Shown piece by piece: positions 5,555-48,558 of a stretch of 64,000 nucleotides of DNA. The stretch comes from Lama guanicoe (lineage: Eukaryota), in assembly GCA_013239625.1 (NCBI GenBank), contig MU053810.1, positions 5,426,071-5,490,070 of the forward strand, read 5' to 3'. The notes beneath the pieces are model-generated. The model saw only the letters and a list, made by a program, of their open reading frames with translations. It was not told the origin of the DNA and searched no databases. Numbering within the stretch: the first letter of the stretch is position 1; each line of letters begins with the position of its first letter. The position numbers were made by a program, and so were the translations under genes.

Positions 5555-6580
5555 TTAAAATATCTGGAGTTATCATTCTTGTTTTCTATTTCAAATAAAT
5601 AATAAAATGTAAATATAGTATTCATAAACTTATAGATAATTATGTTATGCTTATAATTATATTACATTAACAAGTAACACTATAAGATATATTGTAACAT
5701 AAATTATATTTATGTATCGTATATTATAAATTATAAAATATAAATTATGATATATATTACATAAAATATAAGTATGATAAAATATAAAATATTTTTAAAA
5801 TCTCAAAATATGTATTATTCTTGTTTTATGTTTTAAATAAATAATAAACTATAAATATAATATTTATCAATTTATAAAATTGTAATTTATAAATGCAATT
5901 TAAATATTTATAAATTATAATGATATATATTACATAAAATATAAGTATGATAAAATATAAAATATTTTTAAAATCTCAAAATATGTATTATTCTTGTTTT
6001 ATGTTTTAAATAAATAATAAACTATAAATATAATATTTATCAATTTATAAAATTGTAATTTATAAATGCAATTTAAATATTTATAAATTATAATGATATA
6101 TATTACATAAAATATAAGTATGATAAAATATAAAATATTTTTAAAATCTCAAAATATGTATTATTCTTGTTTTATGTTTTAAATAAATAATAAACTATAA
6201 ATATAGTATTTATCAATTTATAAAATTATAATTTATAAATGCACTTTAAATATTTATAAATTATAATGATATATATTACATAAATAATACATAAGTATGA
6301 TAAAATAGAAACTATTTTAAAAATCTTAAAATATCTAGTCTCATTTATGTTTTATGTTTCAAATAGATAATAAAATATAAATGTAGTATTTATCAATTTA
6401 TAATACTACAATTTATAAATATAACTTATAAAATTTATTAATATCTTATAAATTATATTTCTATATTATATTTAAATTATATTTATAACTTATATTAATA
6501 TATTAAATAATGTCTGATAAAATATTTTTAAAATTTGCTTAAAATATCTAGTATTCTTGGTTTATATTTAAAAATAGGTG
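5555..6580. repeat. AT-rich tandem array, 173-bp period (about 4 conserved units plus degenerate flanking units)
   Basis: The anchor tacataaa recurs at 5758, 5931, 6104 and 6277 (exact 173 spacing). Degenerate copies lie at ~5555-5640 and ~6510-6580. Confidence 0.9.
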
Positions 6581-10070: not shown

Positions 10071-12620
10071 CTTGAAAGGTGCTAATAACAGGGTCAGATC
10101 AGCAGCTTATTTTAGGACAGTGTGTATATCCTTACAGGATGCTCAACAGGTGAGAGATGGATTTGGAATTGAAAGATTCAGAAACATGTTAAGAAAGAGG
10201 TTCCTAAGAGCTGTTGGCCCTCCTAACTTGAGATTTGATTATTGAGTTTGCCGGAGGCGGAGGGGATGAGTTTAGGATTCTTTATAAAATCATGCTTGTG
10301 GTTTAATATCTTCTGCCTGTGCAGTTAGAGGTGGAGGATGAATCACTGAGGTTTCTGACTATGGGAACACGAGCTCCCAACTGTTGAATATAAATAACAT
10401 GTTTTTTGAACATAAGAGCAAGAACTTTGTATGTTTTGTTGATATTAGGAAGTGTGTATCCAGTGGTTGGGCTGTGTCTCATTACATTTTTGTAGGATTT
10501 TAAAATGCTTGGCAATTCACTGAGACTTTCAAATGTTTAGATTTTACATTTCCAGAAAGTACCACAAACATCCTTGCAAATTAGTGAGCTCAGAGGGAGC
10601 TGGTGGTAGCAGAGGAGTTTGCCAGCAGAAAACTGAAGCTAGCGAGTCTGGAATGGCCTGTATTAATTGAGTACTTTATTGGTGCAAATGTAGTGATAGA
10701 CACTTACGTGAAGTGAGAAGGAGACTCTTTATAATAGCTAGTGAAGACAGACTCGGTTCTATAATAACTACCTTCTAAATACTTTGAAAAATCGCCTTGC
10801 CTTTGTTTAATTTGGCCATTATTTAAGAGAATAAAAATTTAGCACCTTTTATTTCTGACCAGATTGGCTTTCCTATTCTCCTGATTCAGGCCCTCCAGTG
10901 GGGTAGGCAAGCCAGAGAGCTGTTCTTTCTCACATTCATCCACATTTAAGTACAATTAAGATGTGTTGAGCATGGCCTTTAGAGTTTTCCTTTGCGTAAT
11001 ACAAATGTTTCCCAAAAAATTCATTTCAAAGAGTTAAAACTTAACCTTTCACTTTGGTTTCAAGACTTAAAAAACAACTTTAGGAACACAAAATCAAAAT
11101 GAAACAGATTTAGGAACACAAATCAAGAGTGTTATAGCATCTGTGACATAGAATTATTTATAAATACAATATTAATATGTGATATATAAATAAAACAACT
11201 TCTATCTTGTTCTGTTAACCACCTTCAGCCAGAGATTGATAAAACCATTTCCTCTGGCTGATGAGGATTTACCTTCCAATGCGGTCTTGTTTTTAAGTCC
11301 TTTTAAATAAATCTGTAGGATCTTTGGGTTTTCCACCATTCTTAATATTGAACACAATGTAATTATGTTGATACCAGTGTCAGCATTTGAGCCGTGTCAC
11401 TGGGAACACATATTTGGGGACTCAGTTGCTGCTGTCATTTTCTGCATTGGTGCTCGTTTGGTGCTGAGGGGTCTCCTTTGACTGAAGGTTTCAGAGAGGT
11501 AGCAGAAACTTGAAGTATCTGTCCCCGCAAACACATACTTGGTCACCTTACCCTCCACTGGTTTACTTTGTTATTTATTAACTGAACAAGAGGATACAAG
11601 TCAAAGGATTGGGTCAGATTAAAGCTATTACATATGAAGACAAGGTGAGAATGAATGAAATATTAAACCAACATTAAATACAAAATGTTTTAATGGAAGC
11701 ATTCTTTTCCTTAAAATTAAAGTTCTCATTTGCTAAGCATTCAGAAATTTCTCTGTCCCCCCCCCCCCCACACACACGTACACATGCAGAGCCACTGCCA
11801 GGGGGCTGGGGGCTCCAGTCTTCTTGCTTTTTAACATCAAGGCGTCTCCCCAGATTATTGTGGTGTCCAGGAGCAAGCAAGTACATCACGTGCTTTTTCC
11901 GGTAGAAACCTAGGGCGGGGAGCGAGTTCCTGCTGTTGGATTCACTGCAGATCCTTTTGGAGTGTTAGGACTGGATTGAATTCTGAAATCAGCATATTAT
12001 AGATGAGGACATATTTTATGTCTTCATCAGAGTCCTTTCTGCTTTGCCAGGGAAAATTATGCCCTTTAATTCATGACCACGTAGTGTTGACTCGTATTAT
12101 TATGTGAGTGTATGTGTATTTGGCTTTGGATGAGCAGGGTAAGGAAGGGGTAAATCATCAGTGTTCATGGTGGGAGGATTGGACAGTAACCCACCAGCCC
12201 GTACACAAGAGAAGACACTGCCTGATTTGGTCTCTGATCCCAGGGAGCTTACAGTTTTTCAGAGCAGCTAACATAAGCATGCATATTTGAATGGAAGGGT
12301 GGTTGTGTCTTAAATAGGGCAATAGAAAAAGTGCTTTAGGAGTTTAGTGTTGGAAGATTGTGTTCTTACCAGGGAATCACAAAAGGATTGCAGGAGAAAT
12401 TAAACGTGATCCTCCAACTGTGGGGGAAGGGCATTGTAGGATAGTGACGAGGTCACACAGGTGTGGCAGGAAGAGTGTGATTTCTATAAAATAAGAGTGA
12501 GTAATATTTTTCCTGGCATTCAGGGAATACTAAGAATTAGTGGCAGGCAGATGTAAAAAGGTGGGTTGAAGGAATTGGTGGAGAGAGAGAACACCCAATG
12601 AAGGCACTAGAATTCAGAGA

Positions 12621-12803
12621 GGGGGAGGGTATATAGCTCAGTGGTAGAGTGTGTGCTTAGCATGCATGAGGTCCAGGGTTCAAACCCCAGTACATCCATT
12701 AAAAATAAGCAAATGGGGGAAGGTATAGCTCAGTGGTAGAATGCATGCTTAGCATGCACAAGGTCCGGGGTTCAATCCCCAGTACCTTCATTTTTAAAAA
12801 AAG
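12621..12803 (+). mobile_element. Head-to-tail dimer of camelid tRNA-derived SINE (Vic-1-like)
   Basis: Two units (12621-12714 and 12715-12803), each with A-box TAGCTCAGTGG, B-box GGTTCAA(A/T)CCC and an A-rich tail. Confidence 0.85.
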
Positions 12804-14306
12804 AACTCATGGTGGAGACAGATGCTCTGGAAGTACAGTCCCCGTTGGGGACGGCTGCAGTCCAGGGGTCCCCTCTGAGCAGCCATAACTCAGAGAAGAC
12901 AGGGCACATTTCAGCTTAACAGGTGGAGAATGTGGGGAAATTTGTTCACTGCAGCTCAGAGTTTCAGAGTACATAAAGTCAGGAAATAAGAGACGAGGGA
13001 GGGGATGAGTGGGAATTTTGGTGAGGAGTAAAGAATTCCAGAGTGGAATTCCATTTTTGACAGTGATGACAGTGAGAAAGGGGATAGAGGTGGGGGAAGG
13101 AGATACCCTCCGTTTTAGGCAGTGACTAGGGAAAACTGCTTCACTCACATTGCAGCCTCCCTCTCCCTGGGATTCAGGTAGTAAAGACAGTGAGGACAAA
13201 ATACAGCAGCAGGAGTACCCTTTGGAGTCCTACAGATCACCTGTGAAAGACGGAACATATATGCACTATTGAATTCATCTGGCATACAGAAAGTAGCTGG
13301 CTTGTATTCCAGTGGCATACTGTGTGTATTTTGAAGTTAAACTCTCATCTAACAGGGCAGGATGACCATCCTGTGAGGACCAAAGCCGTGAGAGTGATGA
13401 TAGGATGTAGTGCCTCAGCCCCCATCTCAGATTCCCTCCCAGTGGGACACATACTCACCTGCATTCTCCTTCTCCTTTATTTAGTGGTTGCTGTTGAGGA
13501 TGGAGAGTTGACTTTGGATAGCGTAGAGATGATGTGACCTGGCTATATTTGGAGTAAGGCTGTAAGGACCGAGGGCTTGGTCTCTGTAATATTGCCACCA
13601 CACCTGATCCTTGTGTGGACGTGCAATATTTGCTGTCAGTGATCTTCAGAGTGAATTTTAAATCATTTTAAATAGTCCTCTAAGCATTAAGCATATCTTA
13701 TTAGTCTTCATTAGAGCTTAAGTAGTAAAGCAACTTCTCGGATTCATTCTAATTCAGGAAACGTTTCTTAAATATCTTTTTGGGACCTGCCTGTCATCAT
13801 TTAAATGCATGCCTGAAAGACACTGAAAGTCATGGAGATTAATCAGAAGGGGTCACGTCCTCAAAGATCTGATTAAGCAACAGAAGCTCTTCTTTTTTGA
13901 TTCATTGTATTCTCATTTATTTCATAAGGTCTCACACACACACACAAAATAGTGATGGGAGCTGTGCTCTTTCCCTCTTTCTCTTGTTTTTTTTTGTTTT
14001 TTTTCCGTATGGGTGATAAAAACACCTTTGGCTGAAGATGAGACTATTGGGTGTGAGGATGCATAGATCCTTTAGATGTAAGGGCTAGCAGAAATTCCCA
14101 TCAGAAATCTGAATCAGTGTTTCTGCATTTACAGTGTTCTGTTCTTAACTTGGTAAGCCCTGGCCTTGGTGTTGCCATGGGGATGGACACTTAGAAGGAG
14201 GCACCATTAGCAAGTCTATTTGAAACTCTGAGGGCCTTTGGGCCACAGGCTAGTGGTGCTGGACAGGGCTGGCAATAGATCCCTGGGGGACTCCTTGGGC
14301 TTTTCA

Positions 14307-14936
14307 ACTCAACAAGAGTGAAGAGGTGTGTTATAGACCAAACAGAAAGGAGGTGGTATTGAAGGTGGGGGTGGGCAGGGAAGTGGGTGAGGGAATCACC
14401 AAAATATAGGGCAGCATCAAGTTCTTCACTCTGCCTTTTTAAAGAGAGAGAAACAGAGACCTTCTGGCGTCTATGTGTTCCAATAGAGTCATGCATCTAA
14501 ACAAATTGTCATTTTCTAGGCTTTGCTTTAGAATGAGCTTCTACCAGTTGAGCAACTGTGAACATTTCATTGCAACGTAAAGGAAGTACCGTGACATAAA
14601 TGTCAGTGACTTTAATGTTCCCAGTCCCTTTTAAGCAGAATATCAGAAAACATGATAATCCTATTGTGAGGTCTGGCGTGAGAAAGAGCTTGTAAATAGC
14701 CAGGACAGTAGCCCCTTGCTATCTTGTAAATTGTAGGAAAGTGATATTTACCTGACGACTATTAAGAAGGGTCATCTGTGCCTCCAGGTAAAAGGGAAGG
14801 TGATTGAATTAGGTCACCCACAGTGAACTGGTTGTCACCCATCCTTCCCATGGCCCTTTCTCCCTGCCCACCCCAACCCTTCAATACCACCTCCTTTCTG
14901 TTTGGTCTATAACACACCTCCTCACTTTTGTTGAGT
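14307..14936. repeat. Long inverted repeat: arms 14307-14381 and 14861-14936, ~480-bp spacer
   Basis: Direct alignment gives a 43-bp perfect core (14323-14365 with 14878-14920), two substitutions in the outer part and one small indel/mismatch in the inner part. Confidence 0.95.
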
Positions 14937-15149
14937 AAAACTTTGATGTTTGGTGTCAGATATGATTTTTTGAAATCTAGTCATTCTGAATGTGCTGTCA
15001 CAAGCCATGAATACTTACTTCTTTTCCTTCAAGTTTTTGAGATCTTGGGGTAAAGATAAGCTCTAATCAGTAGGTGTTTCAAGATAGAACTCAAGAATTT
15101 CTTTTTTAAAGTATATTTTTATTGAAATATAGTTTACAACAATTTAAAA

Positions 15150-15288
15150 AATTTTTAGTTTTTTTATGGGAGGAGGTAATTTAGGTTTATTTATTATTCA
15201 TTTTTTTAAGCAGAGGTGCTGAGAATTGACCACAGGACCTTGTGCATGCTAAACATGCACTCTAACCACTGAGCTGTACCCTCCCCCC
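15150..15288 (-). mobile_element. Vic-1-like SINE
   Basis: Reverse complement reads ggggggagggtacagctcagtggttagagtgcatgtttagcatgcacaaggtcctgtgg...aataaacctaaattacctcctccc followed by an A tail. Confidence 0.85.
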
Positions 15289-16189
15289 TGAGAATCTCCT
15301 CCAAGGACCTGAGTTTAGCAGTTGATGCTTTACTGTGGGGTTTACATTTTTGTATGATGCCTTCTTGGATACTGGTTATTTTCTTTTGCTTATTAATCAA
15401 CATATGCACACATATATTTAAAATGTACTTTAACAGGAACGAATGACTTTAAAACTTGGTTAATTCAGACAAGTCATCCTCAGTCCCTTTTTCCTCCAAG
15501 AGCCTCACTTGTAAATTCTACCTTTCTCTGACTTGCATTAATTTCATTAAAAAAAAAAAACAACTTCTAGCTCATCATTGGCAAAGGTGGTTCTCTTCAT
15601 GATCTATTCCTTAGGTAAAGATGAGGCTTTAAGAAGAGATGTGCTCTGAAGATTCCATCCTTATGCTTATATGTACAAGTTGGCATGACTACGGGTCCGC
15701 TTCCTCTGCTGGCTGGAACCAGGGCTATTTATAGTTTCTTTTCTTGGCTTCTGAGTGAGCGTATCAGCGTGTATTTATACAAGGGAGAGCTCCGAGGCCA
15801 TATAAGACTGTAGTTTAGAAACCTAGTAGCCTCATTTGCCTTCTGCATTCTGGAGGGAAAAGAGTGATACTATACTTTGCCAACATAGAAATGTAACGGG
15901 ATGGAGTGACAAGAAACATTACTCCAGCTTCTCTGAAACCGTAGGTGGTGTGAGCAAGGCTGGAGGCAGCATCTACACAGGAAGAAGTGTCATCCAAGGA
16001 TAAGTGACAGGAGCGTCTCCCCAGATAACAGGGCTGCTATCAGTGGCACTGGATTGTGTTTAATTCCTTTTGCAGGTGGACGATACCTCACATTTCCTCT
16101 GATTACCAGAGGCATTGATGTTTTCATTGAGTGATTTCCCATAATGATGCCAGGCCAGGCACGGTGATGTCATGGAAAGAACATGGGCC

Positions 16190-44124: not shown

Positions 44125-44227
44125 AGAACTTTCTCTTTGAAATGTATAATTCTCCATTTCTTACATAAACATTTATTGGGAAATAACTTGACTGATGCTA
44201 TTTTTAAAATTTTATCATGCAATTTTA

Positions 44228-44283
44228 TTTTATTTTTTTAAACATTTTTTATTGATTCATAATCATTTTACAATGTCGTGTCA
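44228..44283 (-). mobile_element. 56-bp L1 3' tip with perfect 14-bp TSD
   Basis: TSD atcatgcaatttta at 44214-44227 and 44284-44297. The insert reverse complement tgacacgacattgtaaaatgattatgaatcaataaaaaatgtttaaaa matches 62200-62248. Confidence 0.9.
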
Positions 44284-44299
44284 ATCATGCAATTTTAAA

Positions 44300-48001: not shown

Positions 48002-48558
<557 letters not shown>

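Follow-up and report, generated by a model that had tools for sequence, protein, structure and literature searches.

Introduction

Template switches of type 1-4-3-2, together with their mirror, yield one inverted repeat, and they accounted for 31% of the 794 high-confidence human-chimp events reported in PMC5453318, where switching between strands was argued for in general. In the four-point model to which these events belong, the copied tracts reported for apes have a median length of 12 and a maximum of 128 (PMC7954356), and tracts of up to 318 bp have been described in humans (bioRxiv 2021.11.26.470150). MMB-TIs are likewise nearby inverted copies flanked by microhomology, and they also occur as germline variants (PMC8421209). 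The two scans looked for templates within plus or minus 100 nt (PMC7954356) and within 100 bp (PMC8421209). Templated insertions made by polymerase theta in C. elegans have been linked to replication blocks, among them G-quadruplex motifs, which can block forks and call on this polymerase (PMC4032859). At the RNA level, the spacing of edited inverted repeats peaks at a few hundred nt and A-C mismatches arising from ordinary mutation are frequent in them (PMC526178); conserved editing sites are described as few (PMC4053846), and the template switches that are reported to seed functional hairpins do so for some hairpins, of miRNA shape (bioRxiv 2023.04.19.537475).

The locus in this study, an inverted repeat in a South American camelid window (the whole stretch of DNA analyzed, 64,000 nucleotides), is a new example of this already known mutation class, and it stands out in two respects only, the length of the jump and the presence of a G-quadruplex motif where the donor ends. 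It resembles the four-point events described in PMC5453318, PMC7954356 and bioRxiv 2021.11.26.470150 in that 12 nt appear to have been replaced by a nearby 68-nt reverse complement, leaving one inverted repeat, a spacer in its original orientation and a longer sequence overall, although the 68 nt copied fall in the upper tail of the lengths given above. With MMB-TIs as described by Osia et al. (2021; PMC8421209) it has in common a nearby inverted template, microhomology at both ends, the replacement of few bases, and a germline variant that came without a larger rearrangement, but it would be an old event between species and not a human polymorphism, and its template lies past the 100-bp limit of that study. 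The small loss, the insert templated nearby and the minimal homology are also found in the polymerase theta events of PMC4032859, which, however, involve deletions of 50–200 bp and templates near the break, whereas the loss at this locus is 12 nt, with a template ∼500 nt away.

Like the inverted Alu pairs that serve as ADAR substrates (PMC526178), the repeat would form a long duplex with an A-C mismatch from arms a few hundred bases apart. Unlike these pairs and the conserved editing sites of PMC4053846, its arms are non-repetitive (within the window), and one of them is missing from a close relative. The miRNA hairpins born from template switches (bioRxiv 2023.04.19.537475) are similar in being lineage-specific stems formed in one step and likely intronic, but those described have stems of 30–55 bases and the shape of a pri-miRNA, compared with a 76-column stem and a 480-nt loop at this locus.

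Genomic Setting and Structure of the Repeat

The window consists of mammalian non-coding DNA and contains tRNA-like SINEs (four Rfam tRNA matches), which we take to be of camelid type, and what are presumably LINE-1 3' ends, recognized by eye. Two tandem tRNA-derived SINEs (12594–12800) and an inverted copy 2.4 kb away (15201–15288) bracket the repeat, and the predicted duplexes of these inverted pairs range from -109 to -116 kcal/mol. Elsewhere in the window there are four copies of a very AT-rich 173-bp unit (5747–6442, 94% match), an inverted LINE-1 tail fragment (44205–44284) with an apparent flanking duplication of ∼15 bases seen by eye, and a retrocopy of RPL36 on the minus strand (48052–48400; Pfam Ribosomal_L36e, E 1.7e-36) with an A-rich tail and an altered frame start. 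Unique sequence at 1500–1900 resembles, by eye, a conserved non-coding element and is a candidate for one, and a MEF2-like A/T-rich motif with a near-CArG motif ∼70 nt from it (15722–15810) may mark a muscle enhancer.

The repeat was recovered when the 64 kb window was searched against itself with blastn (E 3e-26), with 72 of 76 arm columns complementary, and the arms of 75 and 76 nt, their spacing of 479–480 nt and the perfect core of 43 bp are as the initial annotation had described them (Table 1). That annotation also correctly placed two outer differences between the arms, G at 14316 against T at 14927 (a G:U pair in plus-strand RNA) and A at 14322 against C at 14921 (an A-C mismatch), to which two inner differences that it did not name are to be added, namely a gap of 1 nt close to 14879 and, at 14367/14875, a mismatch of G with A. 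Judged by eye, this pair is the only long, high-identity inverted match among the 25 of the self-search that does not connect dispersed or simple repeats. A 24-mer from the arm, searched through the 64 kb window with up to three mismatches, matched twice, at the two arms themselves; a 24-mer from the right arm had no exact match in metagenome contigs, which is little informative.

Table 1. Positions in the window of the features at and around the inverted repeat.
Feature	Position	Strand	Remarks
Left arm	14307..14381	+	Likely derived copy plus two 4-nt microhomologies; only its ends present in X17 and X19
Outer switch-point microhomology, 4 nt	14307..14310	+	Pairs with 14933-14936; present in relative
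67-nt tract in place of the relative's 12 bases	14311..14377	+	Matches 14865-14932 in reverse complement except for 3 substitutions and 1 gap
Uninterrupted core, 43 bp	14323..14365	+	Partner 14878-14920; 43-nt contig in X6 at about twice flank depth
G-quadruplex motif, 5 tracts	14367..14393	+	Regex scan
Inner switch-point microhomology, 4 nt	14378..14381	+	Pairs with 14861-14864; present in relative
Spacer	14382..14860		Colinear with relative, uninverted; own fold unremarkable; X19 contig 13989-14908
Speculative exon, unsupported	14520..14787	+	268 nt; stops in all 3 frames
Canonical G-quadruplex motif, 7 G-tracts	14838..14879	-	Overlaps inner end of donor; regex scan
Right arm, likely donor	14861..14936	+	In relative at least to 14908

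Four of the 24 listed sequencing runs were compared with the window (X6, X15, X17, and X19), all as contigs rather than raw reads. Run X6, an independent DNA run, yielded contigs at 13230–14352, 14336–14907, 14878–14920 and 14891–15110, which together contain all four arm junctions without a single difference within the arms, and the 43-nt core had a depth of 22.8 compared with 12–16 in the flanks. This contig graph is that expected of a true inverted repeat. No single X6 contig spans the whole stretch, and because the contigs break at the core, X6 is silent on the orientation of the spacer. Among the runs compared, X6 is the sole one of the window's own type with cover. Word shares were 0.94–0.98 in 14 DNA-type runs (six studies; three marked as a possible source), but these cannot prove carriage of the arm, because the maximum for the state without the insert is 0.92 and P(≥0.94) = 0.34. 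Runs X21 to X24 contained almost no window words.

Comparison With a Diverged Relative

Runs X17 and X19, which come from two studies, have most of their differences from the window in common, and X19 differs from it at 48 of 1333 bases (3.6%). The relative sampled in these runs is likely an Old World camel, which would fit this level of divergence from a South American camelid; exchanging the two labels would leave the argument as it is. In both runs, 14310 is joined to 14378 through 12 different letters, identical in the two, and the left arm is therefore absent from 2/2 compared runs of the diverged type, with 14311–14377 replaced by 12 bases and only the first four and last four bases of the arm retained. 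The right arm is present in the relative and could be seen to 14908, the end of a single X19 contig that runs from 13989 through the joint and the spacer in the order of the window. The tract that the relative lacks matches the donor segment, read in reverse, in 64 of 68 columns.

Other differences from the window were also seen in these runs. X19 has 13 extra bases at 13550, and a T>C change at 14653, found in X17 only, may be an allele. In the vicinity of 14874, X17 has two alleles, one of them 2 nt shorter and the other with a single difference, which hints that 14875 was earlier a C that matched the left arm, and that a G-C pair was broken later.

The colinearity of spacer and flank in the one X19 contig is the ground on which an inversion is rejected. 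A small-inversion scar, which the initial annotation had considered, or alternatively an artefact of assembly, might have been entertained from the X6 contigs, which break at the core and leave the orientation of the spacer in that run unfixed; the spacer is unflipped in the relative, however, and all four junctions were found in an independent DNA run with arms free of differences, so that either reading is now extremely improbable.

The relative also bears on whether the arms could be the terminal inverted repeats that bound a DNA transposon or MITE. A length of 630 bp with terminal inverted repeats does give the outline of a MITE as described in PMC8605555, but the arms have no further copy in the window and lack a target site duplication: none of at least five bases was found with the arm ends shifted by up to 6 nt, in agreement with the initial annotation, and two 4-mer candidates appeared for shifted ends only. 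An element inserted as a unit would be present or absent as a whole, and the transposon reading is rejected because both an empty site and the whole element are lacking in the relative; it keeps the spacer and the right arm, and only the left arm is missing. We regard a transposon origin as having hardly any probability.

Origin of the Left Arm

The left arm probably represents a one-time inverted copy of 14865–14932, made by a polymerase template switch in an ancestor of the window's lineage, with the stem as a by-product that has no selected function. A replication template switch had been named as one of two alternatives in the initial annotation, and it is the 12-base state of the relative, together with the microhomologies at the junctions, that now speaks for it. 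One reverse-complement fragment (67 nt in place of 12 nt) explains the difference from the relative, as the four-point model would have it, and the single inverted repeat with an uninverted spacer, colinear in the X19 contig, is the product of type 1-4-3-2. The inverted orientation and the 4-nt microhomology at each junction are features of an MMB-TI. If joins were blind to homology, microhomology of at least 4 nt at both would be expected with a chance of ∼3.5e-4. The jumps of ∼490–570 nt, on the other hand, place the event outside the short-range class of Walker et al. (2021; PMC7954356), in which the template lies within about plus or minus 100 nt of the cluster region.

Under this model, a nascent 3' end would, in the course of replication or of break repair, have come off its template at one of the junctions and annealed through a 4-base microhomology to a donor in reverse orientation ∼490–570 nt away, where 68 nt would have been copied in reverse before a return through the second 4-base microhomology, with 12 nt skipped. 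The order in which these switch points lie on the plus strand would be 1-4-3-2 (point 1 at 14310, 4 at 14378, 3 at 14865, and 2 at 14932), and its minus-strand mirror, 3-2-1-4, would be feasible as a fold-back on the nascent strand itself. As switching between strands was favored generally in PMC5453318, the strand route may have been either fold-back or inter-strand switching. Fork restart, an MMBIR-like process or polymerase theta end joining are candidate routes for the polymerase, among which the scar does not discriminate, and the arms would afterwards have diverged through ordinary mutation. A pre-existing weak stem that guided the switch finds no support, as the pre-event segment folds like shuffled sequence, and the thought that several switches had pieced the left arm together was given up because the relative already has the inner matches that start at 14378.

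The inner switch point falls within a minus-strand G-quadruplex motif of seven tracts, the longest of nine such motifs in the 64 kb, which together cover 0.4% of bases. That this motif was causal for the switch is a post hoc guess. The plus-strand motif at the inner end of the left arm was likely completed by the copy, because only three of its tracts lie in the part common to the relative.

We infer that the direction of change was a gain of the left arm, the arm-less state being ancestral, a polarity that, unlike that of the published four-point events, comes from parsimony between the window and this relative. The converse is unlikely, namely a repeat that predates the split and a left arm that disappeared from the lineage of the relative through a deletion and a small insertion. 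Six of the relative's 12 letters match the arm interior at 14338–14343 and could be what is left of an arm since lost, a match expected by chance at 1.5% when letters are shuffled and at 10% for random 12-mers from the window; the divergence of the arms, 4 in 68 columns, is also compatible with an age above that of the split, and the estimated arm age of 0.4–3.8 times the split allows an origin before it. Such a loss must nevertheless have reached to within 4 nt of both ends of the arm, which holds for 9 of the 141 placements of a 67-nt deletion touching a 75-nt arm, and it would require two deletions and 12 new letters against one event for a gain. The split has been dated to 11–25 million years (PMC13751797), which would put a gain at several million years ago or more.

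Folding, Selection, and Transcription

The plus-strand RNA of 14250–15000, the region that the initial annotation had singled out for folding, has a predicted energy of -293.9 kcal/mol (z -13.5), and 0 of 20 shuffles were as stable. The entire fold signal stems from one 67-nt tract, because 14378–14940, from which the left arm is excluded, is no more stable than its shuffles (z -0.5 for the DNA minus strand and -0.6 for the RNA plus strand). Weaker pairings had been described inward of the arms, and while their letters are present, their significance is marginal (p 0.015–0.064 in post hoc shuffles, and 0.036 when this geometry is applied to other places in the window).

A selected long-range RNA stem, the other alternative of the initial annotation, does not agree with the lack of one arm in both diverged-type runs, an outcome that the annotation itself had listed among those that would refute it. 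A stem conserved across camelids was rejected, as the left arm is absent in a relative ∼3.6% diverged, and the mammal-wide conservation of the duplex that marks conserved ADAR substrates is likewise not found. A miRNA or other known RNA is not suggested either, as there is no Rfam match at the gathering score here and the loop measures 480 nt. The G:U pair and A-C mismatch had been put forward in favor of an RNA function, but the duplex has almost the same stability on either strand (-139.4 and -140.2 kcal/mol), and these differences are no argument for function because any transition in an inverted repeat appears as G:U on one strand and as A-C on the opposite one; they carry no weight here. 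Four differences between the arms were seen, where 2.7 would be expected if the copy were neutral and of the same age as the split (P(≥4) = 0.29), and there is thus no deficit of pair-breaking changes and no sign that pairing has been kept up, although the counts are low and some differences could have come from error-prone synthesis at birth. A selected function of the stem is not indicated.

Between the window and X19, 10 of 531 positions have diverged in 14378–14908 compared with 38 of 802 in the left flank (p 0.006, post hoc), or 14 events compared with 40 when indels are included (p 0.03, post hoc), and CpG counts are similar in the two stretches. This possibly reflects a constrained element that predates the repeat; any such constraint concerns sequence common to the relative, which has no stem.

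Over the 64 kb, the plus strand has an excess of T over A (p 5e-17) and of G over C (p 2e-13), and this strand skew suggests that the region is a plus-strand intron. A rough splice-site scan of the window gave seven candidate exons, none of them convincing, and no Pfam match was found for any of 299 plus-strand open stretches, taken from the 366 with at least 40 codons, in a scan where the minus strand was represented only by the RPL36 retrocopy, a control that did match. The exon tentatively placed in the loop by the initial annotation fares poorly. In addition to its stop codons, its acceptor is weak (710 of 4325 AGs score as high), and its donor after 14787, fair in itself (34 of 3579 GTs score as high; both from rough matrices), is weakened by an A>G change at 14786 in the relative, which also has a 1-nt insertion within the exon.

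The three runs listed as RNA records have word shares of 0.36, 0.28, and 0.06, and the first of them, X15, has no contigs over the region, which proves nothing. X17, which is guessed to be RNA, covers 14160–14899, with one contig at 14160–14716 that has a depth of about 298 and abrupt ends, and a second set of contigs at 14721–14899 that starts with an end that we take to resemble a cDNA adapter. These pieces may be amplified transcript fragments or a discrete RNA in the relative. From this coverage and the adapter-like end, transcription of the region may occur in the relative that lacks the arm, although the contigs give neither strand nor level. No A>G differences specific to an RNA run were seen in the compared contigs.

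If the region is transcribed, for which the strand skew and the matches from RNA libraries speak, an RNA duplex of ∼70 bp would form and could plausibly be edited incidentally by ADAR, as inverted SINE pairs are. A further step would be that this lineage later put the stem left by the template switch to use, whether as an ADAR substrate or as a control of splicing or expression. Its predicted duplex of -139 kcal/mol exceeds those of the nearest inverted SINE pairs (-116 and -109), the run of 43 bp suits the preference of ADAR for more than 30 contiguous pairs reported in bioRxiv 2025.01.24.634786, the plus-strand skew suggests a transcribed intron, and divergence is lower in the spacer than in the flank. 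Against this stand the missing deficit of pair-breaking differences, a loop without a credible exon, the lack of a Pfam match among the 299 plus-strand open stretches and of an Rfam family at the repeat, and the figures given for human non-repetitive dsRNAs, of which about half a million were predicted and 4,597 edited (bioRxiv 2025.01.24.634786). Recruitment is accordingly judged to be highly unlikely. The same low standing is given to a bolder version, in which the G-quadruplex at the donor end triggered the long jump, which in turn created a 70-bp RNA duplex together with a competing G-quadruplex on the opposite strand, since used as an editing or splicing switch in a host gene; were it true, a regulatory RNA element would have been born from a single replication error.

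Implications

With a likely pre-event allele available from the relative, the locus offers a clean case of one copying error making a long near-perfect inverted repeat in unique DNA. Such a repeat can mimic a selected RNA stem, and the G:U and A-C differences found in repeats of this kind are no signs of function. As a jump of ∼500 nt exceeds the search range of the two published scans (PMC7954356; PMC8421209), events such as this one have probably been undercounted.
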